This document shows positions 20,955 to 48,386 of a stretch of 64,000 nucleotides of DNA, piece after piece. Where the stretch lies: positions 492 through 64,491 of the forward strand of contig DOYU01000021.1 in NCBI GenBank assembly GCA_003518365.1. The letters run 5' to 3'. Position numbers and translations under genes: made by a program. Each line of letters opens with the position of its first letter. The first letter of the stretch is position 1. This stretch comes from Candidatus Magasanikiibacteriota bacterium (GTDB lineage Bacteria > Patescibacteriota > Patescibacteriia > Magasanikbacterales > UBA922). The notes beneath the pieces are model-generated. The model saw nothing but the letters and a program-made list of their open reading frames with translations, was not told where the DNA came from and made no database searches.

Positions 20955-20983
20955 GGGCTTGTCCTGCCTTTCGCGAAAGGCGG
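20955..20983 (+). repeat. Left copy of the direct repeat flanking the GIY-YIG gene (contains hairpin CCTGCCTTTCGCGAAAGGCGG)
   Basis: GGGCTTGTCCTGCCTTTCGCGAAAGGCGG. The near-identical copy at 21322-21351 differs by a G/T substitution at the first base and one extra C. It is followed by a second hairpin, TCCCTCCCTTC-acg-GAAGGGAGGGA (20989-21014). Confidence 0.7.
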
Positions 20984-21047
20984 AGCGCGTCCCTCCCTTC
21001 ACGAAGGGAGGGATATATCGTATAGTGTGTATCAAACAGGAGGGGCT

Positions 21048-21296
21048 ATGTTCTATACCTACCTATTGCAAAGTACAAAGGACAACAATTTTTATATTGG
21101 ATCAACGACGGATTTAAAAAGAAGATTCACCGAACATAACGATGGGAAAGTTTCTTCAACAAAATTTCGTCGTCCAATGAAATTGGTATATTACGAAGCC
21201 TATCCAGAAGAACATCTGGCACGAGTACGCGAACAAAAATTAAAAGATTTTGGTTCAGCATACACAGCACTATTAAAAAGATTAGGGTATAAATAA
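21048..21296 (+). CDS. Small GIY-YIG nuclease family protein (UPF0213/YhbQ-like)
   Basis: MFYTYLLQSTKDNNFYIGSTTDLKRRFTEHN carries the GIY..YIG and R..H motifs. ATG 21048 is preceded by AGGAGGGG. Confidence 0.85.
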   Translation: MFYTYLLQSTKDNNFYIGSTTDLKRRFTEHNDGKVSSTKFRRPMKLVYYEAYPEEHLARVREQKLKDFGSAYTALLKRLGYK

Positions 21297-21321
21297 TATA
21301 GATATATAGTACGTTGTATAG

Positions 21322-21351
21322 TGGCTTGTCCCTGCCTTTCGCGAAAGGCGG
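21322..21351 (+). repeat. Right copy of the direct repeat flanking the GIY-YIG gene
   Basis: TGGCTTGTCCCTGCCTTTCGCGAAAGGCGG. Confidence 0.7.
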
Positions 21352-21411: not shown

Positions 21412-21482
21412 GGGCGCATCGTATAGTGGTAGTACATTGGTCTCCAAAACCAATTGCGTGGGTTCGATTCCTACTGCGCCTG
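21412..21482 (+). tRNA. tRNA-Trp (anticodon CCA)
   Basis: Folded by hand into a cloverleaf: acceptor GGGCGCA/TGCGCCT, anticodon stem TTGGT/ACCAA, loop CTCCAAA, T-arm GTGGG-TTCGATT-CCTAC. CCA is not encoded. Confidence 0.9.
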
Positions 21483-21538
21483 CACTGGAAAACATACCAA
21501 AAATAAGGTATGTTTTTATAGATAATAGAATAAACGAT

Positions 21539-21973
21539 ATGAAAAAAATAACCATCTCCCCCATGCCGACAATAGATTTTCTCTACATATTTTTTGCAGG
21601 TCTTTTGGGGGCAATCAGCTTCGGCATTGTATTTGGACTCATTGGTCTCTTGTTTGCAGATTATCTCGGCTTTCCACTCGCGGTAGGATCTGAAGAATTT
21701 ATGATGGGAGCTAGCATGATCTTCTACAGTACGCTTGCAATACCAGTCGGCGCATATATTGGATGCCTCAAAACTGCAAAATATTTATCATATACAACAA
21801 AAGACCTATACTCTTATTTTACAGGGTTTGTCCTTATTGCGATTGGATTATTTTTGAAAGATTATGTAAGTGTCTATTCATTGCTAGCATTCGGTGCAGT
21901 CAGTGCATTGGTCTTTGCAATGGTAATGGGGGTCTCTGCAAGCAAATCACAAAAGTCTGACATGACAAAATAG
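21539..21973 (+). CDS. Hypothetical small membrane protein (4 TM helices)
   Basis: ATG 21539 (MKKITISPM...). The track ORF start at 21410 overlaps the tRNA, so it is rejected. Hydrophobic segments throughout. Confidence 0.5.
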   Translation: MKKITISPMPTIDFLYIFFAGLLGAISFGIVFGLIGLLFADYLGFPLAVGSEEFMMGASMIFYSTLAIPVGAYIGCLKTAKYLSYTTKDLYSYFTGFVLIAIGLFLKDYVSVYSLLAFGAVSALVFAMVMGVSASKSQKSDMTK

Positions 21974-22063
21974 GTCAAATCGATTTAATCGTTATTCATA
22001 TCCAGCCCCAAGCTGAATTTTGAAGTATCGTTCCAAGTGCGTCTCACAACGCATGCTAACAAG

Positions 22064-22092
22064 ATAAGACTTACCCTAGTCTTATTTTTTTT
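22064..22092 (+). terminator. Intrinsic terminator
   Basis: ATAAGACT-taccct-AGTCTTAT followed by TTTTTTTT. Confidence 0.65.
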
Positions 22093-22176
22093 ACCAAAAA
22101 TTGGATAATGTTTCTATAATAATATACTATATATGATAATCAAGAATATATTATTCAAGATTAATAGATATAGATT

Positions 22177-22827
22177 ATGTATAGAAAAGGAGAAGTCATA
22201 GGTGTCGGGAATGACAAACGCATATATGCTGACGCAATAACTCCTGAGACAAGAGTTATTGCTGAATTTCGCAAGGAACAAACACCTGAAGAAATAAAGA
22301 GTGTGTACTATCTTGGGAACATAGCTCATATATTATTCCCTCAAAATGTACCCAAAGTATATGAAGCAGGGATGCATCCACAAGAACATACGAAAGTAGA
22401 AAGAAAAAAGGTGGATGTCAATCATAAAAATACGGCTGATCTCATGGTGACATACGAAGATTATTTCATGGGAGATGGTGAAACGGGACCTTCTTCAGAA
22501 GAAGATAGTGAGATGGATGTAGATATAGAAAAAAAAGAAACCGATCCAAGAGTAAAACAACTTTTAACAAAAGCGTCTTCTGTCGGATTATATTTTGATA
22601 CAGGCGGACAAAATTTTTCTTTTGACGATTTGGGTACTGTCCAATATCTTGAAGTGAATCCAGCATTTCATATAGAAAAAAACCACGTCCGTTTGCACTT
22701 CAACGAAAGCAAATTAAGAGATGCCATACAAGCATTAGAAAATGAAAAAGAGAAAAAAAAGGCTACACTATATTTCGAACGATTGATGTCTTTGATCCAA
22801 GTAGCACAAAATAATCTTATACAATAG
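22177..22827 (+). CDS. Hypothetical protein; possible atypical kinase-like fold (YrbL-like); weak
   Basis: Glycine-rich loop-like VIGVGNDKRIY near the N-terminus and LYFDTGGQNFSF resembling a kinase catalytic loop, read by eye only. Very AT-rich. Confidence 0.45.
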   Translation: MYRKGEVIGVGNDKRIYADAITPETRVIAEFRKEQTPEEIKSVYYLGNIAHILFPQNVPKVYEAGMHPQEHTKVERKKVDVNHKNTADLMVTYEDYFMGDGETGPSSEEDSEMDVDIEKKETDPRVKQLLTKASSVGLYFDTGGQNFSFDDLGTVQYLEVNPAFHIEKNHVRLHFNESKLRDAIQALENEKEKKKATLYFERLMSLIQVAQNNLIQ

Positions 22828-22913
22828 TTCCAACTTCCTCCTTCCTCTACGATCCCCTGCACCTCCTGCAGTAGCTCCTGCCGGCAGGCAGGTTAGCGAA
22901 GGCACGGCACTTG

Positions 22914-22948
22914 AAAAACAGAGTGAAAAACACTCTGTTTTTCTTTTT
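22914..22948 (+). terminator. Intrinsic terminator
   Basis: AAACAGAGTG-aaaaa-CACTCTGTTT followed by a T-rich run. Confidence 0.65.
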
Positions 22949-23002
22949 GACATGAAGGGAAGAACGGAGTATTGTACAAGTAAACATATACATTATATTG
23001 GT

Positions 23003-23212
23003 ATGGCTCATCAAAAAAATACAATCGGAAAAAACATCAAACGATTACGGCAAGAACAAAAAATTTCCCAAGATCGTCTTTCAAAACTTGCGGATCTTTC
23101 TTTGAATACTATTGTTACCGTTGAAAGTGGCGCAAACGAAAATCCTACTATTGATACGCTCACAAGGATTGCGAAAGCGTTTCAAGTTGGCGTGGATGAC
23201 CTCATAACATAA
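23003..23212 (+). CDS. XRE-family helix-turn-helix transcriptional regulator (69 aa)
   Basis: IGKNIKRLRQEQKISQDRLSKLADLSLNTIVTVESG is a canonical HTH_3. Start set at ATG 23003. Confidence 0.85.
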   Translation: MAHQKNTIGKNIKRLRQEQKISQDRLSKLADLSLNTIVTVESGANENPTIDTLTRIAKAFQVGVDDLIT

Positions 23213-23220
23213 CACCCACT

Positions 23221-24198
23221 ATGTCTAAACAAACACCTACCAATAATCTCGCTATCTACCAAGCTAAAAACGGCGCGATTGAATTTCGCGGTGATTTTGA
23301 GCAAGAGACGGTTTGGGGAAATTTAAATCAAATTGCCGATCTTTTTGGTCGCGACAAGTCCGTTGTTTCCCGCCATATAAAAAACATCTATAAAACAGGC
23401 GAATTAAACGAAACGGCAACTGTTGCAAAAATTGCAACAGTTCAAAAGGAAGGAAGGAGAGAAGTGATGCGTGAAATTGAGTACTTCAACCTTGATGTTA
23501 TTTTGTCCGTTGGGTACAGAGTAGATTCCAAGCAAGCCACGCAATTCCGCAAATGGTCAACGCAAGCGCTCAAGGCACACCTTGTAGACGGGTATACCAT
23601 CAACAAAAAACGCATCGGTAATAACTACGAACACTTTTTGCGTGCAGTGGCAGAAACAAAAGCACTCCTCCCTGTGGGCAACAAGGTTTCTACCGAGGAT
23701 ATACTTGAACTCGTGAACGCATTTGCTGCTACGTGGTTTTCGCTCGATGCATATGACAAAGACGCATTTCCTCAAAAAACAGCCTCAAAAAAGTCAGTTT
23801 CAGTTGACACTGTAAAGCTACTCAATGCGATTGGTGAGTTGAAGCAAGAACTGATAACCAAAAAGCAAGCAACAAACCTATTTGCACAAGAAAGGAAGAC
23901 GGGAACAGTAGAAGGAATCGTCGGAAATGTATTTCAGTCTGCCTTTGGCAAAGATGTATATCCAAGTATAGAAGAAAAGGCCGCACACATCCTCTACTTC
24001 ATGGTAAAAAATCATCCATTCACCGATGGCAACAAGCGCAGCGGAGCCTTTGCATTTGTTTGGTTTCTACGAAAAGCTGGTTTACTCCGACCAAGTCTTA
24101 CTCCAGAAGCGTTGACTGCCATTACCCTCCTCATTGCAGAGAGTAATCCAAAAGATAAAGACAAAATGGTGGGACTAGTGGTGATGTTAATCAAATAA
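23221..24198 (+). CDS. RhuM-family N-terminal domain fused to a Fic/Doc domain
   Basis: N-terminus: QIADLFGRDKSVVSRHIKNI ... YFNLDVILSVGYRVDSKQATQFRKW, the RhuM family pattern. C-terminus: HPFTDGNKRSGAF, which matches the Doc-type core HxFx[DN][GA]NKR. Confidence 0.8.
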   Translation: MSKQTPTNNLAIYQAKNGAIEFRGDFEQETVWGNLNQIADLFGRDKSVVSRHIKNIYKTGELNETATVAKIATVQKEGRREVMREIEYFNLDVILSVGYRVDSKQATQFRKWSTQALKAHLVDGYTINKKRIGNNYEHFLRAVAETKALLPVGNKVSTEDILELVNAFAATWFSLDAYDKDAFPQKTASKKSVSVDTVKLLNAIGELKQELITKKQATNLFAQERKTGTVEGIVGNVFQSAFGKDVYPSIEEKAAHILYFMVKNHPFTDGNKRSGAFAFVWFLRKAGLLRPSLTPEALTAITLLIAESNPKDKDKMVGLVVMLIK

Positions 24199-24200
24199 CT

Positions 24201-25322
24201 ATGGCAAATAAAAACCTTACAAAAGCAAAAAAGGCAAAAAATGATGAATTTTATACTCAATTTTCAGATATTCAAAAAGAAGTTGAGTCTTATCTTGAGT
24301 ATAACCCAGATACTTTTAAAGATAAGATAATTTACAGTAATTGTGACGACCCGTTCGAAAGTAATTTCTTTCGCTATTTTGTATTAAATTTTGATCGTTT
24401 AGGACTAAAGAGACTTATTTCAACGAGCTACAAACCCTCACCTGTTGCCAATACGCAACTGGGATTATTTGGCGATGACAAAACACTTGAAAAAGTAAAA
24501 GGCCGTCCAAAAGTAACCGCTAACAAATTCATCATCAACGAAGTTGGCGATATCGACGGCGACGGCTCTTTTACGCTAGAAGATATTGCCCAACAGCTTC
24601 GAGCGAATAAAAATAACGAATGGACTCCGCTTGAGGGCGATGGTGATTTTAGAAGTGCCGAATGTGTCGAGTTGCTCAAACAATCTGACATCGTAGTTAC
24701 TAATCCTCCATTTAGTTTATTCCGTGAATATATTACGCAACTTTTCGAACACAAAAAGCAATTTCTAATTATTGGTAGCATGAACTCAATTACTTACAAA
24801 GAAATCTTTGTGTTGATTAAAAATAATAAATTGTGGTTAGGTAATGGGTTTAATGCTGGCAATGCATATTTTTCAACTCCCAATGCGCGAAAAGATTTTG
24901 CTTCTGGTGTGTATGATGAAAAAACTGGTCTTGTAAAATTTCGGAATTGTCATTGGTTTACTAATTTAGATCATGGTCGTCGTCATCAGCCTCTTAATCT
25001 GATGACAACAAATGAAAACCTAAGATTTAATAAAAAAATGCAAGGCAAAACTACTTATGATCGTTATGACAATTATGACGCTATTGATGTACCATTTACA
25101 AAAGCTATCCCTTCTGACTACGAAGGAGTAATGGGTGTTCCTATAAGCTTTCTCGATAAGTACAATCCTAATCAGTTTGAGATATTGGGCTCTGACACAG
25201 ACATAAAAGAAGGTAAACTTCCACTTTTAATAATAAGTAAATGGAATGGAAAGCTAGACAGAGGTTATATACATGGAAAGAGAATCTTCAGTAGAATGTT
25301 TATTAAGCACAAAAAGAAATAA
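24201..25322 (+). CDS. N6-adenine DNA methyltransferase, EcoRI-methylase family
   Basis: N-terminal [16 protein letters not shown]...[18 protein letters not shown] and catalytic motif [12 protein letters not shown]. It begins 2 nt after the previous stop codon. Confidence 0.8.
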
Positions 25323-25323
25323 T

Positions 25324-26487
25324 ATGAAAACAACCTTAAAAAATGATATCACCGTTAAAGAAGTTTGCGACGGCTTTGAATACAACGAATTTGAAGGAAA
25401 AGGTTTGTTTGGTCTCTCTGGCAAACTAACTATTCAGCCAGAGTATCAGCGTAATTATATTTATGCTGACGGCAAACGTGACGTTGCTGTAATTGACTCA
25501 ATTTTAAAGGGTTATCCTATCGGTTTGATCTATTTCAATCAGGCTGGTAAAGACGAGTTTGAAGTATTAGATGGTCAACAGCGCATCACGAGTATAGGTC
25601 GTTTTGTTACTGGCAAATTTGCTGTTAAAGATAAAAACGGTCACGAGCAATACTACAGCGGTATGTCTGAGAGTCAGCGTGAGCAAATTATGAAGACTAA
25701 GTTGTTGGTGTATGTGTGCGAAGGTGACGAGCCTGAGATCAAAGATTGGTTCAAGACTATTAACATTGCTGGAGTGCCATTAACTGAACAAGAGATTCTT
25801 AACGCGGTATATTCTGGGCCATTCGTTACTCGAGCTCGTGAAGAGTTTAGTAATAGTCAAAATACCAACATCCAGAAATGGAGTGCGTACATCGCAGGTG
25901 ATATCAAGCGTCAGGCATACTTGGAACGAGCTCTAGATTGGGTTTCTGATGGATCAATCGATAGTTATATGAGCAAACACCGCAATGACAAAAATATTAC
26001 TGAACTAAAAAAACATTTTGATACTATCATTGACTGGGTCTCAACTATCTTTACTGACGTTGAGAGCGATATGAAAGGCCTTGAGTGGAACAGGATTTAT
26101 GAGACATATCACAAGAAGAAATACAATCCGACTACCATCTCTGCTTCTGTTCAGAAGCTCTATGCTGATGGTTTCGTAAAAAGTCGCAAAGGCATTTTTG
26201 AATATGTTTTAGGCGGAGAAGTTGAAACTAAACTACTTGAAATACGAGTATTTGAGGACTCAACAAAACGTTCAGTTTACGAAGCTCAAACTGCTATTGC
26301 AAAGAAAAAAGGTGTTTCAAACTGTCCACATTGTGCTATTGGGCATGATGCCAATAAAGAAAAAATTTGGACTTTAAGCGATATGGATGCTGATCATGTG
26401 GCTGCTTGGAGTAAAGGTGGAAAAACGGAAGCAAAAAACTGTGAGATGTTGTGTAAAACGCATAATCGTGCCAAAGGTAATCGGTAA
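25324..26487 (+). CDS. DUF262 (ParB/GmrS-like NTPase) fused to an HNH endonuclease
   Basis: N-terminus: IQPEYQRNY ... [10 protein letters not shown], the DUF262 hallmark. C-terminus: CPHCAIG...[12 protein letters not shown]...[15 protein letters not shown], the HNH motif. Start set at ATG 25324, 1 nt after the methyltransferase stop codon. Confidence 0.8.
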
Positions 26488-26493
26488 AATATT

Positions 26494-27987
26494 ATGCACC
26501 TCACAAAAACCGACTATCTCGAATATACCTTTTGCAAAAAGAACCTTTGGCTCAAAAAACATAAGCCAGAGCTTTTTGAAGATGTAGAATTGTCGGAATT
26601 TGAAAAAAAAATTATTGAGGAAGGGAATTTGGCTGATGAGGCTGCAAGAAATTTATTTCCTGATGGAGAATTGATCGGTATCGTCGGAGTAAATGCTATA
26701 CCTGTTACAAAAAAGATACTGGAGAAAAACCCACCAGTATTATTTCAAGGTGCATTTTCATTCAATGACTTTTTTGTTCAAGCGGATATTTTACGTTACA
26801 ACGACATTTTAAAGGGTTGGGAACTTTACGAAGTAAAAGCAACAAATGATGTAAAACGAGAAATCCCTCATCACCATATCAACGACCTTGCGTTTCAAAA
26901 AATTGTAATTGAACAAAATGGGATACACATTATAAAAGCAGGCGTTATTCACCTTAACGGCGAATATAGACAACGAGGCAAAGTAAACTATAACGAACTG
27001 TTCATCATTGCCGAGCTTACTGATGAAGTACTAGAAGCGGAAGAACTTGTACGTGGGCAGATGCGTGATATTCACACATATATGGACATGGCAGAAGAAA
27101 AAAATTGTGAATGTTTGTATCGAGGTAGAAATGCACAATGTACAACGTTCGCTTACTCTAATCCTGAAGTGCCTGAATACTCTGTTCACGATATCAATAG
27201 AATTGGCGGAAGCAAAAAACTGTTTTTTGACTGGATAGATAGAGGGATCTACCGGCTCGAAGATATAGATAACCCAGAAAATCTTACAGGATCAAAAAAG
27301 GCACAATATACTGCGTACATAACAGGTAAGCCTCTCATAGACAAAGAAGCAATACAAAAAGAACTTGGTGAATTGGTTTTTCCTCTCCAATTTTTTGATT
27401 ACGAAGGATATTCTAGTGCTATCCCCAGCTTTAACGGCTTCGGTGCGTATGAACAAGTGCCTTTTCAATATTCACTACATACGCTCCATGAAGACGGAAC
27501 GCTTGAACACCGAGAATATCTCATCACAGAGCCAGAGAATGATTTGACTTTGCCATTGGTAGAAAGAATGAAAGAAGACTTTGATGATGTTGGTACTGTC
27601 ATATCTTGGTACAAATCATACGAATCACAACGAAACGACAAACTAGCAGAACTTCATCCAAATCATGCAGACTTTCTTATTGGCCTCAATGACAGAATGT
27701 TTGACCTCATGACAATGTTTTCCAAAAATTATTATGTGGATGCACGGTTCAAAGGGAGTGCAAGCATAAAAAATGTTCTGCCGGTCATTGTACCGGAATT
27801 AACGTACAAAGTACTTGGTATTCAAAAAGGAGATCAAGCAGTAGAACGTTGGGAAAAAATGATATTTGCAGATATTCATCCAGATGAAAAGAAAGAAATA
27901 AAAAAAGATTTGCTTGAGTATTGCAAATTGGATACTTTGGCGATGGTGAGGATTTGGGAGTTTCTAATGAAAATAAAAAATGTATGA
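26494..27987 (+). CDS. DUF2779 family protein (N-terminal PD-(D/E)xK/Cas4-like nuclease, C-terminal DUF2779)
   Basis: MHLTKTDYLEYTFCKKNLWLKKHKPE...FPDG, ELYEVKA (ExK), and FFDYEGYSSAIPSFNGFGAYEQVPFQYSLH, the DUF2779 hallmark. Confidence 0.75.
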   Translation: MHLTKTDYLEYTFCKKNLWLKKHKPELFEDVELSEFEKKIIEEGNLADEAARNLFPDGELIGIVGVNAIPVTKKILEKNPPVLFQGAFSFNDFFVQADILRYNDILKGWELYEVKATNDVKREIPHHHINDLAFQKIVIEQNGIHIIKAGVIHLNGEYRQRGKVNYNELFIIAELTDEVLEAEELVRGQMRDIHTYMDMAEEKNCECLYRGRNAQCTTFAYSNPEVPEYSVHDINRIGGSKKLFFDWIDRGIYRLEDIDNPENLTGSKKAQYTAYITGKPLIDKEAIQKELGELVFPLQFFDYEGYSSAIPSFNGFGAYEQVPFQYSLHTLHEDGTLEHREYLITEPENDLTLPLVERMKEDFDDVGTVISWYKSYESQRNDKLAELHPNHADFLIGLNDRMFDLMTMFSKNYYVDARFKGSASIKNVLPVIVPELTYKVLGIQKGDQAVERWEKMIFADIHPDEKKEIKKDLLEYCKLDTLAMVRIWEFLMKIKNV

Positions 27988-29219
27988 ATATGCACAGCCC
28001 TCTTTCTTCAATTCAACAACTACAATCAATATTAAGTAGTCCTTCGAAAAAAATCGGATTCCTTTTTGGGGCTGGAATTTCAATGGAAAAAAAAGATAAG
28101 AGTGATTTGGTGGTAGGAACTGATGACAAAAAAGATGAGAACGGTAATGTAATAAAAGAAGGAATGACAAGTCTCGCAATTAAAAATTTATCAGAGGAAC
28201 AAAAAAAAGCTGTAGATTTAATAAAGAATGAGGTTGAAACAGAAAATAAAAAATTTAACATCGAAAGTCTCTTATCAAAAATTTCTGAAAAAGAAAGAGC
28301 TGTTGGCGATCAAGAGCTTTGTGGTTTAACAAAAGAAAAATTATTAAATTTGAGAAAGGATATACAGGATAAAATAAGAGATTTGGTTTCCGTACATAGG
28401 GTGGATGATAAAGAAATTGATATTGAGGCATTAAATCACAGCACATTTGCTCAATGGATTAGTAATGCTGATAGAGAATTCTCAGTAGAAATTTTTACAA
28501 CAAATTACGATTATCTACTAGAACTAGCACTTGAAAAACAAGGAATTCCCTATTTCGATGGTTTTGTGGGTAGTTATGAAGCATTTTTTTGCCCTGAATG
28601 GATTGAAGATGACACGCCTGTCAAAAATTGGGTAAAGCTATGGAAATTACATGGTTCACTTGGTTGGGCACAGAATAGTAAAAAAGAAATAATTAGAACA
28701 TCTGGTAATACCGGTGCGGCGATGATATACCCTTCATTTTTGAAATATGACCATTCCAAAAAACAGCCATACTTGAGCTATATGGATAGATTGTCCGATT
28801 TTTTAAAGCAAGAAGATTCTGTCTTATTTGTTTGTGGTTATTCATTTGGAGATGAACATATAAATGAAATAATTTTGACAGCACTTACGCACTCTCGCTC
28901 ATCACATGTATTTGTGTTGAAAAATGGAGAAATGGAAAAATCTAGCCATCTTTCAAAAGAAATTGCACAAAAAAATTCTAGAATTTCAGTTTATGCAAAA
29001 CGTACCTGTATTATTGGAGGTAAATTTGGAGAATGGAAGCTCGATAGAGAACCAGACAGAAATGAATCCTACAACATATTAGATTATGCTTTTGATGAAG
29101 ACGCTACACCTGATGGAGTACCATGGACAGGAAGAGGTGATTTTCGTCTTGGAGACTTTAAAAAATTTACGGAGTTTTTAGAGCTTTTCTACCATAATTC
29201 GAGATATATCAATAAATGA
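27984..29219 (+). CDS. SIR2-like (SIR2_2) NAD-binding defence protein
   Basis: IGFLFGAGIS, FTTNYDYLLE, KLHGS and CGYSFGDEHIN. The start ATG 27984 overlaps the DUF2779 stop codon (ATGA). Confidence 0.8.
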   Translation: MNMHSPLSSIQQLQSILSSPSKKIGFLFGAGISMEKKDKSDLVVGTDDKKDENGNVIKEGMTSLAIKNLSEEQKKAVDLIKNEVETENKKFNIESLLSKISEKERAVGDQELCGLTKEKLLNLRKDIQDKIRDLVSVHRVDDKEIDIEALNHSTFAQWISNADREFSVEIFTTNYDYLLELALEKQGIPYFDGFVGSYEAFFCPEWIEDDTPVKNWVKLWKLHGSLGWAQNSKKEIIRTSGNTGAAMIYPSFLKYDHSKKQPYLSYMDRLSDFLKQEDSVLFVCGYSFGDEHINEIILTALTHSRSSHVFVLKNGEMEKSSHLSKEIAQKNSRISVYAKRTCIIGGKFGEWKLDREPDRNESYNILDYAFDEDATPDGVPWTGRGDFRLGDFKKFTEFLELFYHNSRYINK

Positions 29220-29220
29220 C

Positions 29221-30999
29221 ATGAGAAATAAAGAGACATTTATAGGTAAAGTGAGAAGTGTCACAGGTAGTACGCTTGCTATTGAGTTACACGAAGATAT
29301 TAGATCAACGTTACCTATTATTGATGGGATATTATATAGAATTGGACAAATTGGTTCTTTTATAAGAATTCCTTTTGGTTATGTTGATTTATATGGAGTA
29401 ATTACACAAGCTGGATCAGACGCTATACCAGAAAAATTAGCGGAGCAAGAGGGTTTGAAAGGATCTCGCTGGATTAAGGCTACTCTTATTGGAGAAAGGG
29501 TCGGTAATAGATTTGAAAGAGGGGTGTTGCAATTTCCTATTGCTGATGACGAAGTTCATTTGGTCACGAAGGATGATTTGGAATTGATATATGGTGGAAT
29601 TGATGAATCAAAGTCAATAGTAGTTGGACAGGTCAGTGCCTCTGAAAATCTGTCAGCAAGAATAGATATAGACAGATTAATTAATAGACATTGCGCCATA
29701 CTTGGCTCTACAGGAAGTGGAAAATCAAATACAGTTTCTGTAATACTAGAAGCAATTGCTTCTAGACATCATGATGATGAAAATATAAAAAGTACGAGAA
29801 TTCTTTTGGTCGACCCTCATGGTGAGTATGGCGATATTTTAAAAAATTATAGTCAAATATTTAAGTTAGGAGCAGACTTGTCAAAAGGAGAAAAAGAACT
29901 AGTTGTTCCATATTGGGCTTTACCTTTTCAAGAATTTATAAAAAGTTTTCCAGGTAATCTAACTGAAAAGCAGGAAGAGTACATACGTGAAGAAATTCTA
30001 CAAAGAAAGATTAAGGCTTCTAAAAAATTAAATCCTATTCCACAAGAGGAGGCAATTACAGCTGATAGCCCTATCCCTTTCAGTATTAAACAACTATGGT
30101 TTGACCTTATTGATATAGAGCAAAAAACTTTTAATAACAAGGAGTTAACCGAAGTCGCACTCGAATCACTAGGCGATCCTGAGGCACTTAAGCCTAACAA
30201 ATACTCCATAGCGTCAACAAATAATACAGCCCCTTTCAGTAATAACAGGGTTGCGCAGGGTATTTCAAGTTTTTTAAACTTAATGCGGAATAGAATTTTA
30301 GATCAAAGATTTAAGTTTTTATTCAAACTAGACACGCTCTCTCCTGGTATTGACGGAACTATTTCAAGTGATTTAGACAGTCTCATTGAAAGTTGGATTG
30401 GGACAGAGAAACCAATAACTATTTTAGACCTATCGAGTATACCCTCTGAAATCATGGGTTCAATTTCTGGTTCTTTGCTTTCAATAATTTATGAATTTCT
30501 ATATTGGGGACAGAATGAAGATGTGGGAGGTCGCCAAACACCTATTCTGTTTGTACTAGAAGAGGCACATAATTATCTAAAGTCAGGCGAGAATTCTATT
30601 GCCTCAAGAACTGTACAAAAAATTGCAAAAGAGGGTAGAAAATATGGTTCAGGTTTACTACTCGTAACCCAACGACCTTCTGAACTGGATGATACTGTTT
30701 TGAGTCAATGTGGTTCAGTTATCGCGTTGAGAATGACAAATTCTAGCGATAGAGGCCACGTAAAGAGTGCTGTCGAGGATTCCCTAAACGAGTTAGTTGA
30801 TTTGCTTCCGAGCCTAAGAACAGGTGAAGGTTTAATTATGGGTGAATGTGTAAAATTACCTATGCGAACTAAATTTTCTAAAACTAGGGAATCTAAAAGT
30901 ACAGACCCACTTGTTTCTAAGCAGTGGAAAACAACTCTTCCAGAATCCTCTAACTATAATAAAGTTTTAGAAAATTGGAGAAATAATAAATTTTCTTAA
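29221..30999 (+). CDS. HerA-like (DUF87) FtsK/HerA-clade ATPase
   Basis: Walker A ILGSTGSGKSNT, Walker B ILFVLEEAHNYL, GRKYGSGLLLVTQRPSEL. It begins 1 nt after the SIR2 stop codon. Confidence 0.85.
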   Translation: MRNKETFIGKVRSVTGSTLAIELHEDIRSTLPIIDGILYRIGQIGSFIRIPFGYVDLYGVITQAGSDAIPEKLAEQEGLKGSRWIKATLIGERVGNRFERGVLQFPIADDEVHLVTKDDLELIYGGIDESKSIVVGQVSASENLSARIDIDRLINRHCAILGSTGSGKSNTVSVILEAIASRHHDDENIKSTRILLVDPHGEYGDILKNYSQIFKLGADLSKGEKELVVPYWALPFQEFIKSFPGNLTEKQEEYIREEILQRKIKASKKLNPIPQEEAITADSPIPFSIKQLWFDLIDIEQKTFNNKELTEVALESLGDPEALKPNKYSIASTNNTAPFSNNRVAQGISSFLNLMRNRILDQRFKFLFKLDTLSPGIDGTISSDLDSLIESWIGTEKPITILDLSSIPSEIMGSISGSLLSIIYEFLYWGQNEDVGGRQTPILFVLEEAHNYLKSGENSIASRTVQKIAKEGRKYGSGLLLVTQRPSELDDTVLSQCGSVIALRMTNSSDRGHVKSAVEDSLNELVDLLPSLRTGEGLIMGECVKLPMRTKFSKTRESKSTDPLVSKQWKTTLPESSNYNKVLENWRNNKFS

Positions 31000-31010
31000 T
31001 TATTAAACAT

Positions 31011-31223
31011 ATGGAAAGAAAACCAGTACAATCATCAAATCTTGCTGCTATTGGATATGATCCTTTGACAGAAACTTTGGAGGTGGAATTCACAGATGGG
31101 TCTGTCTATGAGTATAAGAACGTCTCTCAATTTATATACGATGAGCTGATGAATGCTTCGTCTCATGGTTCTTATTTTAATAGAGAAATCAGTAAAAGTT
31201 TTCCGTATGAGAAAATAGGTTAA
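31011..31223 (+). CDS. KTSC domain protein (70 aa)
   Basis: VQSSNLAAIGYDPLTETLEVEFTDGSVYEYKNV matches the KTSC pattern (SSN...GYD...L.V.F..G..Y.Y..V). Confidence 0.75.
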   Translation: MERKPVQSSNLAAIGYDPLTETLEVEFTDGSVYEYKNVSQFIYDELMNASSHGSYFNREISKSFPYEKIG

Positions 31224-31401
31224 ATATGAAATAGGATTGTTTGAGGGAGGGGCAATTCTCCTTTTTGATTCCCCTCTTCCCCCTCCCCCAAACCAGAAAT
31301 AGAAGTTTTGAATGAATAGAATTAATTGGATACAATTGGACGTAGTTAATATATCCAAAAACCAATAATCTGTTATACTTTCATAGAAGTATCATTCTCA
31401 C

Positions 31402-33249
31402 ATGAAACATTCAACATTCCACTATCATCTATCACGTATGACCCTCCTCTTTCTCATACTGATCCCCATCCTCATCATTATTGTGGGGATGTATGTTTTC
31501 TTTTGGAAAAACGCTGTACCAACAGGAGAACAATTTGTGACCGTATGCTCGGATGAAGATGTGTCGTGCCACCCGACGAATCTCCCGTATCAAGATGCAA
31601 CACTTCCGACTCAGGAACGAGTTGTTGATTTGCTCGGCAGGATGACTCTGGCAGAAAAAATAGGACAAATGGCACTTGTTGAAAAAAATAGTATTAAAAA
31701 CAACAATGACATTGCAACGTATGGACTTGGTGCCATTATGAGTGGTGGTGGAGGAAAACCCACTGACAATAGTCCTACAGGTTGGAAAGACATGATACAG
31801 TCATTTCAAACAAAGAGCCAAACAACACGTCTTCAAATTCCCCTCTTGTATGGCGTGGATGCAAATCATGGACATGGCAATGTACCAGGAGCAACAATTT
31901 TTCCACACGCTATCGGACTTGGCGCGACAAACAACGCGGAACTCGTAAAAAATATTGCAAAAGCAACCGCACAAGAAGCAGAAGCGACTGGCGTTAATTG
32001 GATATTTTCTCCAAATCTTGACGTGACAAACGATGTCAGATGGGGACGAACGTATGAGACGTTTGGTTCAAACACAGAAACCATCGCTAAACTTGGACAA
32101 GCATCTATAGAAGGTATGAACACGGTGCCGACGATGCTTGCGGGCGCAAAACACTTTATCGGGAATGGTGCGACCGAGTGGGGATCATCTGAAAACAAAA
32201 ATTTTTTTATCGACCAAGGCAATGCTTCTGTATCTGAAGAAGAATTGCGAAAGACGCATCTGATACCCTTTATCTCCGCCATTGATGCTGGAGCCAAATC
32301 AATTATGATTGGTCTCAATCAATGGAACAATGAAAAAATTATATTTCACACATATCTTATACAGGATGTATTAAAAGGTAAGCTTGGATTTGACGGATTT
32401 GTCTTCTCAGACTGGTATGGCGTATACGAGGGGGAATCAAATAAATCAACAGCACTCATCAGTGCCATCAATGCTGGCGTAGATATGGTGATGCTTCCCT
32501 ATGATTACACACAATTCTCTCGTATCATGCACCGCGCCGTACAAAATGGCGATATTTCAGAAGCACGGATTGATGATGCTGTGACGAGAATTCTCACGGT
32601 AAAATTTGATAAAGGACTTTTTGATACAACACCAACAAACGTCTCAGACCTCGACATCGTCGGATCAAAAGAACACAAAGATCTTGCACGAATTGCAGTA
32701 CAACAATCTCTGGTGTTGTTAAAAAATAAGAACGTCCTTCCCCTCTCTAAAAAAGTGAATTCCATATTTATAGCAGGATCGAGCGCAGATAATATTGGAA
32801 GACAATCTGGTGGGTGGACAGTAGAGTGGTCTGGTATTGATGGAAATTGGATCCCCGGAACGACGATATTGGAAGGAATAAAAAACACCGTATCCCCTAC
32901 CACGAATATTCAATATGACATGCAGGGATCATTTCCAACACAAACAGAAAAAGCAGATGTTGGTATTGCGATTGTAGGAGAAATGCCGTATGCAGAAGGC
33001 TGGGGAGACAATGCACACCCATCACTTTCTGAAGAAGATATCAATACTATTGAAGCATTGAAAGCACAGAGTAAAAAAATTGTAGTGATTATTGTTTCTG
33101 GTCGTCCGCTTGATATTGCCCCATATATTGACGAGTGGGATGCCGTTGTGGCCGTATGGCTTCCTGGTTCTGAAGGAATGGGAATTGCAGATGTTCTGTT
33201 TGGAGATGTTTCATTCACAGGGAAACTTCCTATTGAGTGGACATGGTAA
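31402..33249 (+). CDS. Glycoside hydrolase family 3 (beta-glucosidase/BglX-like), N-terminal TM anchor
   Basis: LAEKIGQM, GVDANHGHGN, the GFDGFVFSDW nucleophile motif, and a C-terminal alpha/beta sandwich domain. Confidence 0.88.
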   Translation: MKHSTFHYHLSRMTLLFLILIPILIIIVGMYVFFWKNAVPTGEQFVTVCSDEDVSCHPTNLPYQDATLPTQERVVDLLGRMTLAEKIGQMALVEKNSIKNNNDIATYGLGAIMSGGGGKPTDNSPTGWKDMIQSFQTKSQTTRLQIPLLYGVDANHGHGNVPGATIFPHAIGLGATNNAELVKNIAKATAQEAEATGVNWIFSPNLDVTNDVRWGRTYETFGSNTETIAKLGQASIEGMNTVPTMLAGAKHFIGNGATEWGSSENKNFFIDQGNASVSEEELRKTHLIPFISAIDAGAKSIMIGLNQWNNEKIIFHTYLIQDVLKGKLGFDGFVFSDWYGVYEGESNKSTALISAINAGVDMVMLPYDYTQFSRIMHRAVQNGDISEARIDDAVTRILTVKFDKGLFDTTPTNVSDLDIVGSKEHKDLARIAVQQSLVLLKNKNVLPLSKKVNSIFIAGSSADNIGRQSGGWTVEWSGIDGNWIPGTTILEGIKNTVSPTTNIQYDMQGSFPTQTEKADVGIAIVGEMPYAEGWGDNAHPSLSEEDINTIEALKAQSKKIVVIIVSGRPLDIAPYIDEWDAVVAVWLPGSEGMGIADVLFGDVSFTGKLPIEWTW

Positions 33250-33262
33250 ACAGTGTTTTTCT

Positions 33263-42471: not shown

Positions 42472-43065
42472 ATGAACAAACATATTCTCGTTTCATTGTC
42501 TTTTTTATCAGTAGCTCTGGTAATTTCTGGTTGTGGAAATAACACAACTACACCCAATGCTTCTGATACAGGTACAGAGCCAGGTCAAGAACGATTTGGG
42601 AATAATCCAAATGCTCCACAAACTCAGGCTGATATTGTGGGTATTGTGAAATCTATGGTTGGGAATGAAGTGACCATTACTCAAATCGATATGGACAAAA
42701 TGCGTGAGGCAATGGCTGCCAGTAGGCCAGATAGCCAACCTGCAACGGGTGAGGAAGGAAGGAGTAATAATTTTGTCGCAGGAACAGGACCAGGTATGGG
42801 ACCGGGGGGCGGTATGGGTCCTGGTGGTGGTATGGGACCAGATGGTGCCAATATTGATAGTGAAGAAAGAAATCAAGCACTCTCTGACATGATGAAAGAA
42901 TATAGTGCAGGAGACGTAAAAGTAATACTTCCTGTAGGGATTGCGATGAACCGTCGTGGGGAAACAGCAAGTTTAGCTGATGTTGCTGTTGGTGCCAATC
43001 TTTCTATTTGGTTAAATACGTCAGTCAGTGACAAAAAAGTAGCTGAGTATGTAAGTATTAGATAA
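42472..43065 (+). CDS. Lipoprotein with a Gly/Pro/Met repeat (GPGMGPGGGMGPGGGMGP); first gene of a MacAB-like operon
   Basis: Signal peptide and lipobox LVISGC. Confidence 0.65.
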   Translation: MNKHILVSLSFLSVALVISGCGNNTTTPNASDTGTEPGQERFGNNPNAPQTQADIVGIVKSMVGNEVTITQIDMDKMREAMAASRPDSQPATGEEGRSNNFVAGTGPGMGPGGGMGPGGGMGPDGANIDSEERNQALSDMMKEYSAGDVKVILPVGIAMNRRGETASLADVAVGANLSIWLNTSVSDKKVAEYVSIR

Positions 43066-43066
43066 T

Positions 43067-44905
43067 ATGTCTCAAGAAGAATCAATCATTGCTCAAAGCA
43101 AAAAATTTCGTCGTGGAGGATACATACCAAAACTTTTGAAAAATAAAAAAGTACTGATGATAGTGCTTGTTTTGGTAATGACTCTTTCAGGCGGATATTA
43201 TGTGTATTCAAAAATCGCAAAGAACAATGATACCGCTGTTGCTACGAAAAAAACATATACCGTAAAAAAAGGTGATATTCGTATTTCTACCAATGCTGAC
43301 GGCAGTATTGTTGCCAAAGATGGTGTGAGTTTGTCTTTTTCGAGTACAGGTGTCACGATAAAAAATGTATATGTAAAAGAAGGCGATATCGTCAAAAAAG
43401 GTGACAACATTGCAACAGCCGATACAGGTACCCAAAGCATTGATTTGCAATCAGCGTATGCTTCGTATACGTCTGCGAAAGCAAGTTATGAAGAAAAAAT
43501 TGCAGGACCTACAGAAAATGATTTGGCTTCCTACAAAAATTCTGTTGAAAGTGCTCAAGCAAGTCTTGATAAGACGTTGAAACAAAATGAATATGCAATA
43601 CAGAGTGCGGAAAGTTCTCTAGAAACAGCTCTTGCTAATTTGAAATTGTCAGAAGGTGGTGAACAGAGTCAGATAGTACAAGATGCGTACAACGATATAT
43701 ATCTGGATTCACTCAGTGCGGTGACGAATCTGAATGCAGCGCTTACTGCCTCAGATAATATTCTTGGTATTGACAACATATTTGCCAATGATGTTTTTGA
43801 AAATGTATTATCAGTCTTAGATAGTGCGAGCATTTCTCAGGCAAGAAATTCTTATCTTGTTGCAAAACATACGTTGACAACTGCAGAAAATGCCGTTGTG
43901 GTATTGAATGCTTCTTCTCCTCAAGGAGATATGTTGGCGAGTGCCCAATTAGTTCTAGTAGCTATTACCCAAATGCATCAGCATTATTATGATATGCAAG
44001 AAATGCTTGTAGCAACGCTACCCATTGGTGATCTGTCACAAAGCTCCTTAGAGAGTATGCGAAGCAGTGTGAATAGCAAAAAATCATCCATGGTTTCTTT
44101 GCTCAGTTCTTTCAATGCTTCTCTGAAAGCCATAGATACAGCAACATCAAGTTATGATTCATATAAAAGAGCATATGAAAATGCTCTCCAAGCATTGGAA
44201 AAAGCAAAGAGTGATGCTGAGTCTTCTGAAATAAGTGCCAGATTGAGTCTACAAAATGCAGAACAACAGTTGAAAGAGGCATCGGCTCCTTTGACAGAGT
44301 CTGAGCGTAGTTCCGCCAAGAGTAGTCTTGCAAATGCAAGTGCAAGTGTACAAAAACTTCAATATCAAATAGATCAATCTACGCTCAAATCCCCGATTGA
44401 TGGTGAAGTGGTATTGTTGAATGGGAAAACAGGAGACATCATCGTGGATGAAAAAAATTCTCCTTTTGTAACAATTTTGAATAAAGAAACATTTTTTGTT
44501 GAGACAAATATAGAGGAATCTGAAATAAGTAACATCCAAGTTGGTCAAAAAGCTCACATCATTGTTGATGCACTCGATGAAGCAACGCTTGAGGGTACGG
44601 TCAATTTTATTTCCCTTACTTCTGAAAGTGGTACTGGTGGTGTTGTGACGTACCTTGTGCGTGTGTTGCTAGATGATACAGAGTATGTTGATGTGAGAGA
44701 AGGAATGACGGCAGGTGTGGACTTCGTGATTGCGGAATCAAATGATGTCCTGATGGTGCCAGTGCAAGCAGTACAAAATGTAAATGGCAAACCTGCAGTA
44801 ACCATGAACAATGGAGATACCAGAGACGTTGTCACTGGTTTTACAGATGGACAAACAGTGGAGATTATTTCTGGATTAGAAGTTGGAGAACAAGTAACCT
44901 ATTAA
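43067..44905 (+). CDS. Periplasmic adaptor (HlyD/MacA-type membrane fusion protein) with a very long coiled coil
   Basis: N-terminal TM segment, lipoyl-like VKEGDIVKKGDNIA, about 300 aa of coiled coil, and a C-terminal beta-barrel (SPIDGEVVLLNGKTGD). Confidence 0.75.
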   Translation: MSQEESIIAQSKKFRRGGYIPKLLKNKKVLMIVLVLVMTLSGGYYVYSKIAKNNDTAVATKKTYTVKKGDIRISTNADGSIVAKDGVSLSFSSTGVTIKNVYVKEGDIVKKGDNIATADTGTQSIDLQSAYASYTSAKASYEEKIAGPTENDLASYKNSVESAQASLDKTLKQNEYAIQSAESSLETALANLKLSEGGEQSQIVQDAYNDIYLDSLSAVTNLNAALTASDNILGIDNIFANDVFENVLSVLDSASISQARNSYLVAKHTLTTAENAVVVLNASSPQGDMLASAQLVLVAITQMHQHYYDMQEMLVATLPIGDLSQSSLESMRSSVNSKKSSMVSLLSSFNASLKAIDTATSSYDSYKRAYENALQALEKAKSDAESSEISARLSLQNAEQQLKEASAPLTESERSSAKSSLANASASVQKLQYQIDQSTLKSPIDGEVVLLNGKTGDIIVDEKNSPFVTILNKETFFVETNIEESEISNIQVGQKAHIIVDALDEATLEGTVNFISLTSESGTGGVVTYLVRVLLDDTEYVDVREGMTAGVDFVIAESNDVLMVPVQAVQNVNGKPAVTMNNGDTRDVVTGFTDGQTVEIISGLEVGEQVTY

Positions 44906-44916
44906 GACTGAATGGT

Positions 44917-45627
44917 ATGAGTGAAGAAGTTGTCATACAATTGAAAGATGTCCACAAATCTTATTATTTAGGCAATGGCGAAGAAGTACAGGTCTTAAAA
45001 GGGGTTGATGTAGAAATAAAAAAGGGAGAATTTGTCGCACTCATGGGAGAGTCTGGTGGTGGAAAAACCACGTTACTCAATATTCTAGGATGCCTCCATC
45101 CCCTCTCTTCTGGTACATATTTACTCGAAGGAGAAAATATTGGAGATGTCCGTGATGATGGAACGCTCGCGTTTATCCGTAACAAAAAAATGGGCTTTGT
45201 GTTTCAACAATTCAATTTGTTGTCACGTCTCAGTGCTCTCAAAAATGTGGCATTGCCAAGTCTGTATGCAGGAGTCGACAAAGAAACGAGAAACACAAAA
45301 GCAAAAGAACTGTTAAAACTTTTATCAATGGAAGAAAGAACAGAACACAAACCAACAGAGCTTTCGGGTGGTCAACAACAACGTGTCGCCATAGCACGCG
45401 CGCTGATGAACGACCCTGAAATAATTTTGGCAGATGAACCGACAGGTGCTCTTGATTCAAAAAATGGTTTGGAGATTATGGAAATTTTCAAAAATTTCAA
45501 AAACCAACAAAAGACGGTCGTGATGGTAACGCATACCGCAGAAGTTGCAAAATACGCTGACAGAATTATCTATATGCGTGATGGTAAAATTTTGGATACT
45601 CATTATCAGTTGAAGAGTGAGTACTAA
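44917..45627 (+). CDS. ABC transporter ATP-binding protein (MacB/LolD type)
   Basis: [35 protein letters not shown]. Confidence 0.9.
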   Translation: MSEEVVIQLKDVHKSYYLGNGEEVQVLKGVDVEIKKGEFVALMGESGGGKTTLLNILGCLHPLSSGTYLLEGENIGDVRDDGTLAFIRNKKMGFVFQQFNLLSRLSALKNVALPSLYAGVDKETRNTKAKELLKLLSMEERTEHKPTELSGGQQQRVAIARALMNDPEIILADEPTGALDSKNGLEIMEIFKNFKNQQKTVVMVTHTAEVAKYADRIIYMRDGKILDTHYQLKSEY

Positions 45628-45685
45628 TTTTTTGTGAATATACTAGGTAAAAAATTAGAGTTTACGAGGATCATTTGTTGAACGT

Positions 45686-46894: not shown

Positions 46895-46952
46895 CACATT
46901 TTGATTGATGTATACATATACTTGACTTTTTCTGATATTTCATACAGTATAG

Positions 46953-47013
46953 AAGTATACTTACTTCTCTGGACTTCCGATTTCTACCACAAATTCACAG
47001 AGTATAGTATACT
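46953..47013. promoter_or_regulatory. Two palindromic AGTATACT boxes upstream of hicB (candidate autoregulatory operators)
   Basis: AAGTATACTT at 46953-46962 and AGTATACT at 47006-47013, 52 bp apart centre to centre. Half-site-like AGTATAG motifs lie adjacent to each. Confidence 0.35.
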
Positions 47014-47036
47014 TAAAAAGTACGTAAACATTTTAT

Positions 47037-47354
47037 ATGTGGAACACTATATATCGTTTTTTCTTCCCAGCGCTTTCGCCTGCTGAAATAAAAAAAACAT
47101 ATAATATCCCAAACAAATTTAATCTACGCATCCGATTTACTCCTGATGGTTTTTTTGTCTTGACCTGTGAAGAATTGCCAGGCCTCGTAACAGAGGCAAA
47201 AAATGGCAAAGATCTTATAAGAATGTTTAACGATGCCGTATTATCTTACTATGATGTTCCTAAAAAAATAGGAGATGTGGTCCATGAGAAAATGATTATT
47301 GACGGATACGGAACATTTGTATTGCAGGACAACAAGGTTGTCCAACCAGCGTAA
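47037..47354 (+). CDS. hicB: HicB-like (UPF0150) antitoxin
   Basis: DGFFVLTCEELPGLVTEAKNGKDLIRMFNDAVLSYY fits the HicB N-terminal fold pattern. It is paired with hicA 5 nt downstream. The start codon is uncertain. Confidence 0.6.
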   Translation: MWNTIYRFFFPALSPAEIKKTYNIPNKFNLRIRFTPDGFFVLTCEELPGLVTEAKNGKDLIRMFNDAVLSYYDVPKKIGDVVHEKMIIDGYGTFVLQDNKVVQPA

Positions 47355-47359
47355 ACCAT

Positions 47360-47620
47360 ATGGGGAGGCAAGATTTCAATAGAAAACAATGTATACGAGC
47401 ATTACTAAAACTGGGATTTGTAAAAGATAATAAACGACGTGGGAGTCATGACAAATTCAAGGCACCCGAACATGTATTACAACAAAGACAAGCAAATCAG
47501 CCCCCTTTTATCATGGTTCCAAGGTCAAGACAACTTCACTGCCAGTTGGAAATATTGAAAGAACTATGGGCTTTTGGTGGCGATGCATTTGTGGAAGAAT
47601 TTTTAGGCCATATAAAATAA
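47360..47620 (+). CDS. hicA: HicA-family mRNA interferase toxin
   Basis: RKQCIRALLKLGFVKDNKRRGSHDKF...VPRS matches the HicA/YcfA pattern, including the catalytic GSH. Confidence 0.7.
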   Translation: MGRQDFNRKQCIRALLKLGFVKDNKRRGSHDKFKAPEHVLQQRQANQPPFIMVPRSRQLHCQLEILKELWAFGGDAFVEEFLGHIK

Positions 47621-47630
47621 AAACACAGTT

Positions 47631-47924: not shown

Positions 47925-47943
47925 TGATTACCTCCAATAACTT

Positions 47944-48375: not shown

Positions 48376-48386
48376 GGTGACTCTCC

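Follow-up and report, generated by a model that had tools for sequence, protein, structure and literature searches.

The 9.9-kb region 21484-31375 of a 64,000-nucleotide (nt) stretch of Candidatus Magasanikbacteria DNA (contig DOYU01000021.1 of assembly GCA_003518365.1; the whole stretch is called the window below) is most probably a composite, integrase-less defence island, made up of separately mobile modules and lodged in an intergenic hotspot between a tRNA-Trp gene and a glycoside hydrolase family 3 (GH3) gene. The host belongs to the candidate phyla radiation (CPR, or Patescibacteria), whose members have tiny genomes and few characterised defences. A preliminary description of this DNA had proposed a horizontally acquired defence island at tRNA-Trp; this is borne out by an empty site in a related contig (L167) and by different defence cargo at the same place in a sister strain (L168-L170). 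The features of the region and its flanks are the following.

21048-21296, + strand: GIY-YIG gene, 82 amino acids (aa), in the flank outside the island (Pfam GIY-YIG, 9.5e-17)
21412-21483, + strand: tRNA-Trp (CCA), the proximal landmark (ARAGORN; Rfam tRNA, 63.8 bits)
21539-21973, + strand: open reading frame (ORF) for a hydrophobic, membrane-like protein of 144 aa (ORF list)
22177-22827, + strand: ORF of 216 aa (ORF list)
~22826-22862, + strand: degenerate copy of the tRNA-Trp 3' end, ...CCCTGCAC (alignment with the tRNA end, L167, L172 and L168)
23003-23212, + strand: XRE-family helix-turn-helix (HTH) regulator, 69 aa, or 86 aa if started at 22952 (HTH_3, 2.6e-11)
23221-24198, + strand: RhuM joined to a Doc-type Fic domain, RhuM-Doc (Virulence_RhuM, 6e-23; Fic, 1.6e-12)
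24201-25322, + strand: EcoRI_methylase, predicted type II N6-adenine DNA methyltransferase of the M.EcoRI family (Pfam, 3e-127; PADLOC MTase_II, 2.8e-106)
25324-26487 (longest ORF from 25273), + strand: DUF262 (GmrSD_N/ParB-like) with an HNH endonuclease domain, DUF262-HNH (GmrSD_N, 1.3e-22; HNH, 2.1e-5)
26494-27987, + strand: DUF2779 protein, predicted to hold two nucleases (Pfam, 1.1e-34)
27984-29219, + strand: predicted SIR2 NADase effector, SIR2_2 (SIR2_2, 9.6e-22; PADLOC SIR2)
29221-30999, + strand: HerA, predicted hexameric ATPase (DUF87, 1e-36; HerA_C, 5.4e-10)
31011-31223, + strand: KTSC protein, 70 aa (KTSC, 1e-25)
31231-31360, + strand: right-end segment, island-specific (blastn, alignment and motif search in loci)
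31402-33249, + strand: GH3 glycoside hydrolase gene, the distal flank (Pfam)

According to the ORF list, ten + strand genes lie between tRNA-Trp and GH3, and the last eight, from XRE to KTSC, follow each other with gaps of 8, 2, 1, 6, -4, 1 and 11 nt. The eight co-directional, near-gapless genes with named domains that had been described were thus recovered, with coordinates, gaps and Pfam families all confirmed; the count needs correction in that two extra + strand ORFs separate tRNA-Trp from XRE. No family match was found for these two ORFs (21539-21973 and 22177-22827) in Pfam, PADLOC, NCBIfam or PHROG, and in place of the second one the sister-strain contig L168 has a different ORF, HicA-like by eye. 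As described earlier, the region is AT-rich, with a GC content of 0.366 over 21484-31375 versus 0.439 in the remaining window (single genes within the island range from 0.33 to 0.42), and integrase or transposase domains are absent from all ten ORFs in Pfam searches. Of the two landmarks at which the island had been said to start, the tRNA gene does adjoin it, while the GIY-YIG gene precedes the tRNA and is not part of the island. An Rfam scan of the whole window revealed only three tRNAs.

The synteny check suggested earlier, whether tRNA-Trp is directly followed by GH3 elsewhere, was positive in L167, where a tRNA 3' end, a hairpin and GH3 occur within 110 nt. The GH3 gene of L167 is 79% identical to that of the window at the amino-acid level and 80.6% at the nucleotide level. 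The contig opens with GTGAGTTCGATTCTTACCGCGCCTGCT, which agrees at 24/28 positions with the 3' end of the window tRNA-Trp, a change in the T-stem being compensated; this is followed by a hairpin, a promoter-like motif AATCTG(C/T)TATACTT and the GH3 ATG at position 110. In the window, the alignment with L167 and L172 places a hairpin with a T-run just 3' of tRNA-Trp (~21487-21517), and a conserved promoter-like motif AATCTGTTATACTT precedes GH3 at ~31366-31380, at the other end of the island. Genes for DUF6938, EamA and a GH42-like protein are found downstream of GH3 on the + strand in L167 (1-11957). The window has them on the - strand, upstream of the tRNA; an inversion or rearrangement has taken place around the hotspot between the two.

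The cargo of the site varies between strains. About two dozen near-identical contigs from Rifle-aquifer groundwater (e.g. GCA_000998635.1) all hold the island at the same place, and we conclude that it is fixed within this Magasanikbacteria population. Contigs L168-L170, from the same aquifer, are 93.4% identical to the window over 31231-33260, on the GH3 side. At the left, blastn revealed that they share window positions 22843-23455 at 99.3% identity, i.e. the tRNA-end relic described below, the terminator, XRE and RhuM as far as its nt 235; the match then stops and resumes only at 31231, eight bases past the KTSC stop. Between these shared ends, the sister strain carries a Dam-like methyltransferase, a DpnII-family restriction endonuclease, an N4/N6 methyltransferase, GajA (5.5e-212) and GajB (4.9e-168). 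This cargo (L168:1166-7327; also in L169 and L170) has the same XRE at its head and a RhuM truncated to 86 aa. Different defence systems are therefore present at one site in close relatives, which is what defines a defence hotspot. Both islands contain the 130 nt at 31231-31360 (ca. 93% identity), which are absent from the empty site of L167 and from L172. We conclude that cargo has been exchanged between strains within conserved ends, and we infer that this occurred by homologous recombination at the shared ends rather than by site-specific integration. Since the left end is 99.3% identical and the chromosomal flank 93%, a recent exchange of island DNA between lineages is suggested. A GC-rich inverted repeat within the right end (31243-31290) folds no better than its shuffled versions (z = -0.8); it was also considered as a dispersed repeat and rejected, being present only in this island and in the sister island.

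It had been stated that no copy of the tRNA 3' end exists at the distal border. This is correct for the border itself, but a degenerate copy exists inside the region, at ~22826-22943 together with what follows it. In the window, the tRNA-end copy is followed by a GC-rich insert of ~49 nt and then by a terminator hairpin with a 13-bp stem at 22913-22943, detected in a terminator scan. Another relative, L172 (GH3 80% identical), has a degenerate tRNA-end copy (...GCCTGCAC) and the same hairpin directly before the GH3 promoter. Judged by these alignments, 22826-22943 is a putative attR-like relic dividing the region into two parts. Because of the tRNA-end copies in the window and in L172, the 1.4 kb beside the tRNA looks like a remnant of a tRNA-integrated element; the defence array lies beyond the relic, outside this proximal segment. 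The whole region could then be a decayed integrative element, a remnant of a prophage or of an integrative and conjugative element that targeted tRNA-Trp and carried the defence genes as cargo, and the adjacent tRNA, the low GC content and the tRNA-end copies agree with that. We regard this as unlikely: the att-like copy encloses only the proximal 1.4 kb and leaves the array outside, without a distal repeat; no integrase, phage structural or conjugation genes were found in Pfam and PHROG scans; and conserved ends around different cargo in two strains fit recombination at a hotspot better. An integrase and flanking repeats of the tRNA 3' end, by which tRNA islands are recognised, are likewise missing from the region, where the only copy is internal and degenerate.

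The preliminary description leaned towards a different view of the array, in which the eight genes form one integrated, new defence system with a single operon and interdependent parts. The genes are co-directional and separated by -4 to 11 nt. Pattern scans revealed a terminator (22913-22943) and a promoter-like site before XRE, with no strong internal terminator from XRE to KTSC, and a single transcript from the XRE promoter, as predicted from these patterns, is plausible. Still, we consider one interdependent system highly improbable. The whole block, whose gene order had been proposed as a database query, was seen in near-identical contigs of one population and nowhere else; each module is found alone elsewhere; and the sister strain retains XRE but exchanges everything past RhuM codon 78. 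Thus, the suggestion that the combination is one unnamed system is not borne out, as at least four independent modules, each found elsewhere without the others, are present. The statement that this is not a named system is right only insofar as several named systems stand side by side, PADLOC naming SIR2-HerA, a type II restriction-modification (RM) system and the candidate PDC-S23 (SIR2 7e-108, HerA 2e-150, REase_II 2e-88, MTase_II 3e-106, PDC-S23 7e-112). By their profiles, the genes are assigned to at least four modules: XRE with RhuM-Doc, the RM pair, a solo DUF2779, and SIR2-HerA-KTSC.

Several points weigh against an island of separate modules exchanged at a hotspot. The tight spacing and the ATGA overlap of DUF2779 and SIR2 leave room for functional coupling, and so does locus L123, which repeats the order DUF2779-SIR2-HerA-KTSC. 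The L167 contig starts within the tRNA, which leaves only 28 nt for identifying it as tRNA-Trp, and the genes around this site are otherwise rearranged. A single alternative-cargo lineage and a single empty site were found; the contigs of other relatives break just upstream of GH3 (among the GH3 relatives with 79-80% identity, L172 and L173, contigs end less than 500 nt from GH3, and L171, at 62%, is not syntenic). Finally, no recombinase was found in the island by Pfam and no tRNA repeat at the distal border by alignment of the right end, and for this reason the mechanism of insertion can only be inferred.

The RM module consists of the M.EcoRI-family methyltransferase, whose PADLOC model is MTase_II PDLC03297, and of DUF262-HNH, which matches REase_II PDLC03418 across its full length (1.7e-88). 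Genes 60-67% identical to DUF262-HNH are present on plasmids of Enterococcus faecium (pBN83-1), Pseudarthrobacter psychrotolerans and Moraxella osloensis. On all three plasmids they directly follow a gene annotated as "adenine-specific methyltransferase EcoRI family protein", and other island genes are not nearby. We therefore conclude that the two genes, side by side here and recurring together in unrelated replicons, are a predicted type II RM pair.

At the left end of the array, a consensus scan revealed a promoter-like site (TTGACA, 17 nt, TATTGT; 10/12, a pattern match only) at 22947-22975 on the + strand, directly before XRE. The XRE protein resembles control proteins of RM systems, capH and HTH_VI in PADLOC, and it is the conserved gene of the left end, the same XRE heading the Gabija/DpnII island of L168. 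It probably represses the promoter at 22947-22975. An operator palindrome was looked for by eye upstream of XRE and nothing convincing was seen. Because XRE adjoins both the terminator and the promoter-like site, it would act as a gatekeeper of whatever cargo follows. The next gene, RhuM-Doc, matches the PADLOC candidate PDC-S23 over its full length (6.6e-112). To our knowledge, PDC-S23 is a candidate system only, with no demonstrated activity. A Doc-type Fic motif, HPFTDGNKR, can be read in the translation, and the NCBIfam model DOC_P1 gives 3.7e-8, under that model's cutoff; the upstream partner is an XRE HTH regulator and not Phd. These matches suggest that a toxin domain of the kinase type is joined to the RhuM N-terminal domain, and make XRE with RhuM-Doc a candidate toxin-like or abortive-infection module.

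SIR2 and HerA, whose genes are 1 nt apart, match defence-specific PADLOC profiles (PDLC04093, 7.2e-108, and PDLC04105, 2.1e-150, respectively), and from these adjacent, co-oriented genes a SIR2-HerA defence system is predicted. The closest solved structures are both from Paenibacillus sp. 453MF: 8wiv_A for HerA (2e-141 over residues 3-590) and 8w9l_A for SIR2 (9e-55). The SIR2 protein has the motifs GAGIS at residue 29, TTN174-Y-D176 and LH223GS; N174, D176 and H223 correspond in position to N163, D165 and H212, which are catalytic in the Paenibacillus protein (PMC11472057). In HerA, the Walker A motif GSTGSGKS at residue 162 is intact. In characterised relatives, a HerA hexamer and a SIR2 dodecamer form a complex in which phage cues switch on the HerA ATPase/nuclease and the SIR2 NADase, leading to NAD+ depletion, by which the infection is aborted (PMC11472057, PMC11514289, PMC13434337).

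The KTSC protein encoded immediately downstream matches residues 629-695 of 8wiv_A (1.5e-12), i.e. the end of the 696-aa Paenibacillus HerA, as well as the solo KTSC structures 7x8c (2e-16) and 4rgi. Residues 576-696 of Paenibacillus HerA have been named the "C-terminal arm domain", the name KTSC being unused (PMC11472057). The distribution of KTSC was determined in a metagenome scan for HerA, which yielded 80 loci: a clade of 44 with at least 37% identity (L087-L130) and 36 more distant ones with at most 33%. Homologues with 55-82% identity come from Patescibacteria, Desulfobacterales, Bacteroidota, Clostridium, Sulfuricurvum and Ignavibacteria. SIR2 lies directly upstream of HerA in the 44 clade loci wherever sequence exists, and the flanks are unrelated. 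A separate KTSC ORF starts no more than ~25 nt past the HerA stop in 41/44 clade loci (none of the 41 is fused), and the three remaining contigs end at the HerA stop, so that KTSC is present in 41/41 informative loci. It was found in none of the 36 more distant loci. The same triad is annotated in RefSeq on plasmid A of E. coli C5 (RG28_RS29290-29300), on a Sulfitobacter faviae plasmid and on an Enterobacter plasmid (L177-L179). The split form is thus the common one, with 41/41 metagenomic and three plasmid loci. Matches of similar strength exist on Citrobacter and Klebsiella plasmids. Judged by gene content, KTSC is assigned as the conserved third gene of the Paenibacillus-type SIR2-HerA clade and, by analogy, it probably serves in trans as an inter-subunit or nucleic-acid-binding module. 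The only mention of this link that we found is an "unpublished observation" (PMC9503650); the experimental SIR2-HerA papers found, including PMC11472057, do not mention KTSC and treat the system as one of two genes.

The DUF2779 protein is predicted to contain two nucleases. Invariant residues were taken from 20 homologues, and all of them are present in the window protein. The N-terminal half has four cysteines in a Cas4-type pattern (C14, C205, C207 and C216) and a D98...E113-x-K115 triad of the PD-(D/E)xK type, and the C-terminal half has a DEDDy set (D302, E304, D404, Y476 and D480). Cas4 hidden Markov models of PADLOC match the protein at 2e-5. An AlphaFold2 model (mean pLDDT, a per-residue confidence score, 74) gave Foldseek matches to MGME1, RecE and Cas4 with a probability of ~1.0 and weak E-values (~2e-3), and less good ones to ExoI and the DinG exonuclease domain; a DUF2779 profile had no match among PDB sequences. 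From these residues and the model, we assign the N-terminal half as a predicted Cas4/MGME1-like PD-(D/E)xK nuclease and the C-terminal half as a predicted DEDDy 3'-5' exonuclease, and the whole would be an enzyme that degrades or processes DNA ends. Published sequence analyses agree with the two-nuclease assignment (PMC13621843, PMC3985635). The family has no characterised member, and one homologue, in JCVI-syn3.0, has been called quasi-essential, which suggests a housekeeping role in DNA repair in some lineages (PMC13621843).

Thousands of DUF2779 homologues exist. The best 120 are 68-100% identical and are mostly from Uhr-, Magasanik-, Falkow- and Jacksonbacteria. A survey of species-representative genomes yielded 66 loci (54-87% identity), and tblastn with all island and flank proteins revealed neither SIR2 nor HerA near DUF2779 in any of them, the neighbours being highly variable. 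The family is unusually conserved across CPR classes (65-87% identity, L021-L086), and it is also found in metagenome-assembled genomes labelled Bacteroidetes, Bacillota, Neomarinimicrobiota and "Gammaproteobacteria"; this pattern suggests strong constraint together with horizontal spread, or else mislabelled bins. An apparent DUF2779-SIR2 fusion of 880 aa (L010:3190-3195) was rejected as a scaffolding gap with a run of N, and a run of N also led us to reject as a natural variant an aberrant, truncated SIR2 call in L007 (at ~window position 28986).

Given the 4-nt ATGA overlap of the DUF2779 stop with the SIR2 start, which was read directly from the sequence (an alternative SIR2 start at 27990 would change the gap to +2), DUF2779 could be an accessory nuclease of SIR2-HerA-KTSC in a four-gene variant, making or trimming the DNA ends that activate HerA. 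All four genes stand in the same tight order in L123, and DNA ends are reported to gate a type III Sir2-HerA (PMC13434337). Yet SIR2 and HerA are absent from ~60 close DUF2779 loci, DUF2779 occurs in only 1 of the ~30 HerA-clade loci with upstream sequence, plasmid-borne DUF2779 sits in other contexts, and an occasional adjacency is expected because both families are common in variable and defence regions. We consider a four-gene system to be quite unlikely; a functional link between DUF2779 and SIR2 is possible in this island, and a general one is unlikely. L123 (5236-10121) encodes DUF2779 (27% identity), SIR2 (30%), HerA (39%) and KTSC (51%), and ~3 kb downstream of this block the opposite strand encodes a DUF262-HNH homologue (35%).

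The neighbours of DUF2779 raise another possibility, that it is tied to RM, either as a nuclease that degrades ends after cleavage or as a general RM- or RhuM-associated defence gene of CPR bacteria. When the 150 genes lying no more than two positions from DUF2779 were classed in CPR loci, ResIII (7), RhuM (5), N6_N4_Mtase (4), NYN (4), N6_Mtase (3), SWI2_SNF2 (3) and nSTAND NTPases (3) were counted, with no background control for these numbers; ResIII, RhuM, both methyltransferase families and SWI2_SNF2 are thus among the commonest neighbours. An M.EcoRI-like methyltransferase lies directly upstream of DUF2779 in L039, and RhuM-family genes do so in at least five other CPR loci. The link is nevertheless rather doubtful: in many loci DUF2779 has housekeeping neighbours (e.g. 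Tig, SmpB, FtsH, Fmt and MetK), the plasmid pairs of methyltransferase and DUF262-HNH lack DUF2779, and the JCVI-syn3.0 homologue points to housekeeping repair.

The island of separately mobile modules can be pictured as two layers. The first would be the tRNA-proximal 1.4-kb remnant, with its two ORFs without a family match, between the tRNA 3' end and its degenerate copy; the second, the 8.3-kb defence array from XRE to KTSC, between the tRNA-end relic and the GH3 promoter, would be a concatenation of independently mobile modules. The M.EcoRI-family enzyme would methylate host DNA and DUF262-HNH would cut unmethylated incoming DNA. DUF2779 would degrade or process DNA ends with its Cas4-like 5' nuclease and its DEDDy 3'-5' exonuclease. 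The HerA hexamer would sense or process phage DNA and turn on the SIR2 NADase, causing NAD+ depletion and abortive infection, with KTSC acting in trans in place of the Paenibacillus HerA C-terminus. The eight genes may share a transcript from the XRE promoter, which would reflect the packing of the island and not a single machine. A more closely linked array has, in our estimate, only a small chance of being right: Paenibacillus-type SIR2-HerA would need KTSC as a third subunit that senses DNA, ends made by restriction would be processed by DUF2779 and then trigger the HerA ATPase and the SIR2 NADase, and all would be driven by one XRE-gated promoter on a conserved-end scaffold for integrase-less swapping.

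Two observations concern the surroundings of the island. The GIY-YIG gene at 21048-21296 is framed by identical 21-nt palindromes, CCTGCCTTTCGCGAAAGGCGG, at 20963-20983 and 21331-21351, with a related hairpin at 20991-21011; the framed unit (20963-21351) may be a small mobile cassette. Similar small GIY-YIG genes are also found beside DUF2779 in eight other CPR loci. A second low-GC stretch, window 43000-49000 (0.376), encodes an HlyD/MacA-like membrane-fusion protein, an ABC ATPase and a MacB/FtsX permease; it is an efflux-type operon and not a defence locus, and it may be another acquired segment.

The island is genuine and well delimited, and is built from known or candidate modules. It shows clearly, for the CPR, a hotspot that lacks an integrase and varies between strains, with SIR2-HerA and RM in one strain and Gabija and DpnII RM in another. 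One large SIR2-HerA clade may have in KTSC a third component that has been overlooked, encoded either directly after HerA or as part of it; as it is a constant partner, constructs without this small gene may not be complete. DUF2779, which recurs next to RM and RhuM genes, is a candidate enzyme of defence or of DNA-end processing. The constancy of KTSC, the dual nuclease of DUF2779 and the integrase-less exchange of cargo within conserved ends are the points worth following.

Integrase-less defence-island hotspots between conserved core genes are known in E. coli, Pseudomonas and Vibrio. The region described here resembles them in its fixed flanks (tRNA-Trp and GH3), its empty site, its alternative cargo and its lack of a recombinase. 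It differs in its CPR host, and in that two strains share island-internal ends, namely XRE with the RhuM 5' end (99.3%) and the 130-nt right end.

The individual modules can be compared with known systems in the same way. SIR2-HerA of Paenibacillus sp. 453MF (8W9L, 8WIV and 8WLD; PMC11472057) has the same SIR2-then-HerA order, the same catalytic motifs and the KTSC module, but there KTSC is fused to HerA, whereas here a 70-aa gene of its own encodes it, 11 nt past HerA, and the host of this predicted system is a CPR bacterium. The RM pair has the same two genes in the same order as plasmid-borne type II pairs, but is lodged between RhuM-Doc and DUF2779 and does not stand alone. RhuM-Doc is like PDC-S23 in its full-length profile match and like the P1 Doc toxin in its Doc-type motif, and is unlike the latter in having an XRE regulator upstream and no Phd antitoxin. 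The DUF2779 protein shares predicted folds, the D...ExK triad, the four-cysteine pattern and the DEDDy residues with Cas4, MGME1, RecE and DnaQ-like DEDDy enzymes, and it differs from all of these in that both putative nucleases are combined in one 497-aa protein, outside any helicase or Cas1/Cas2 context.

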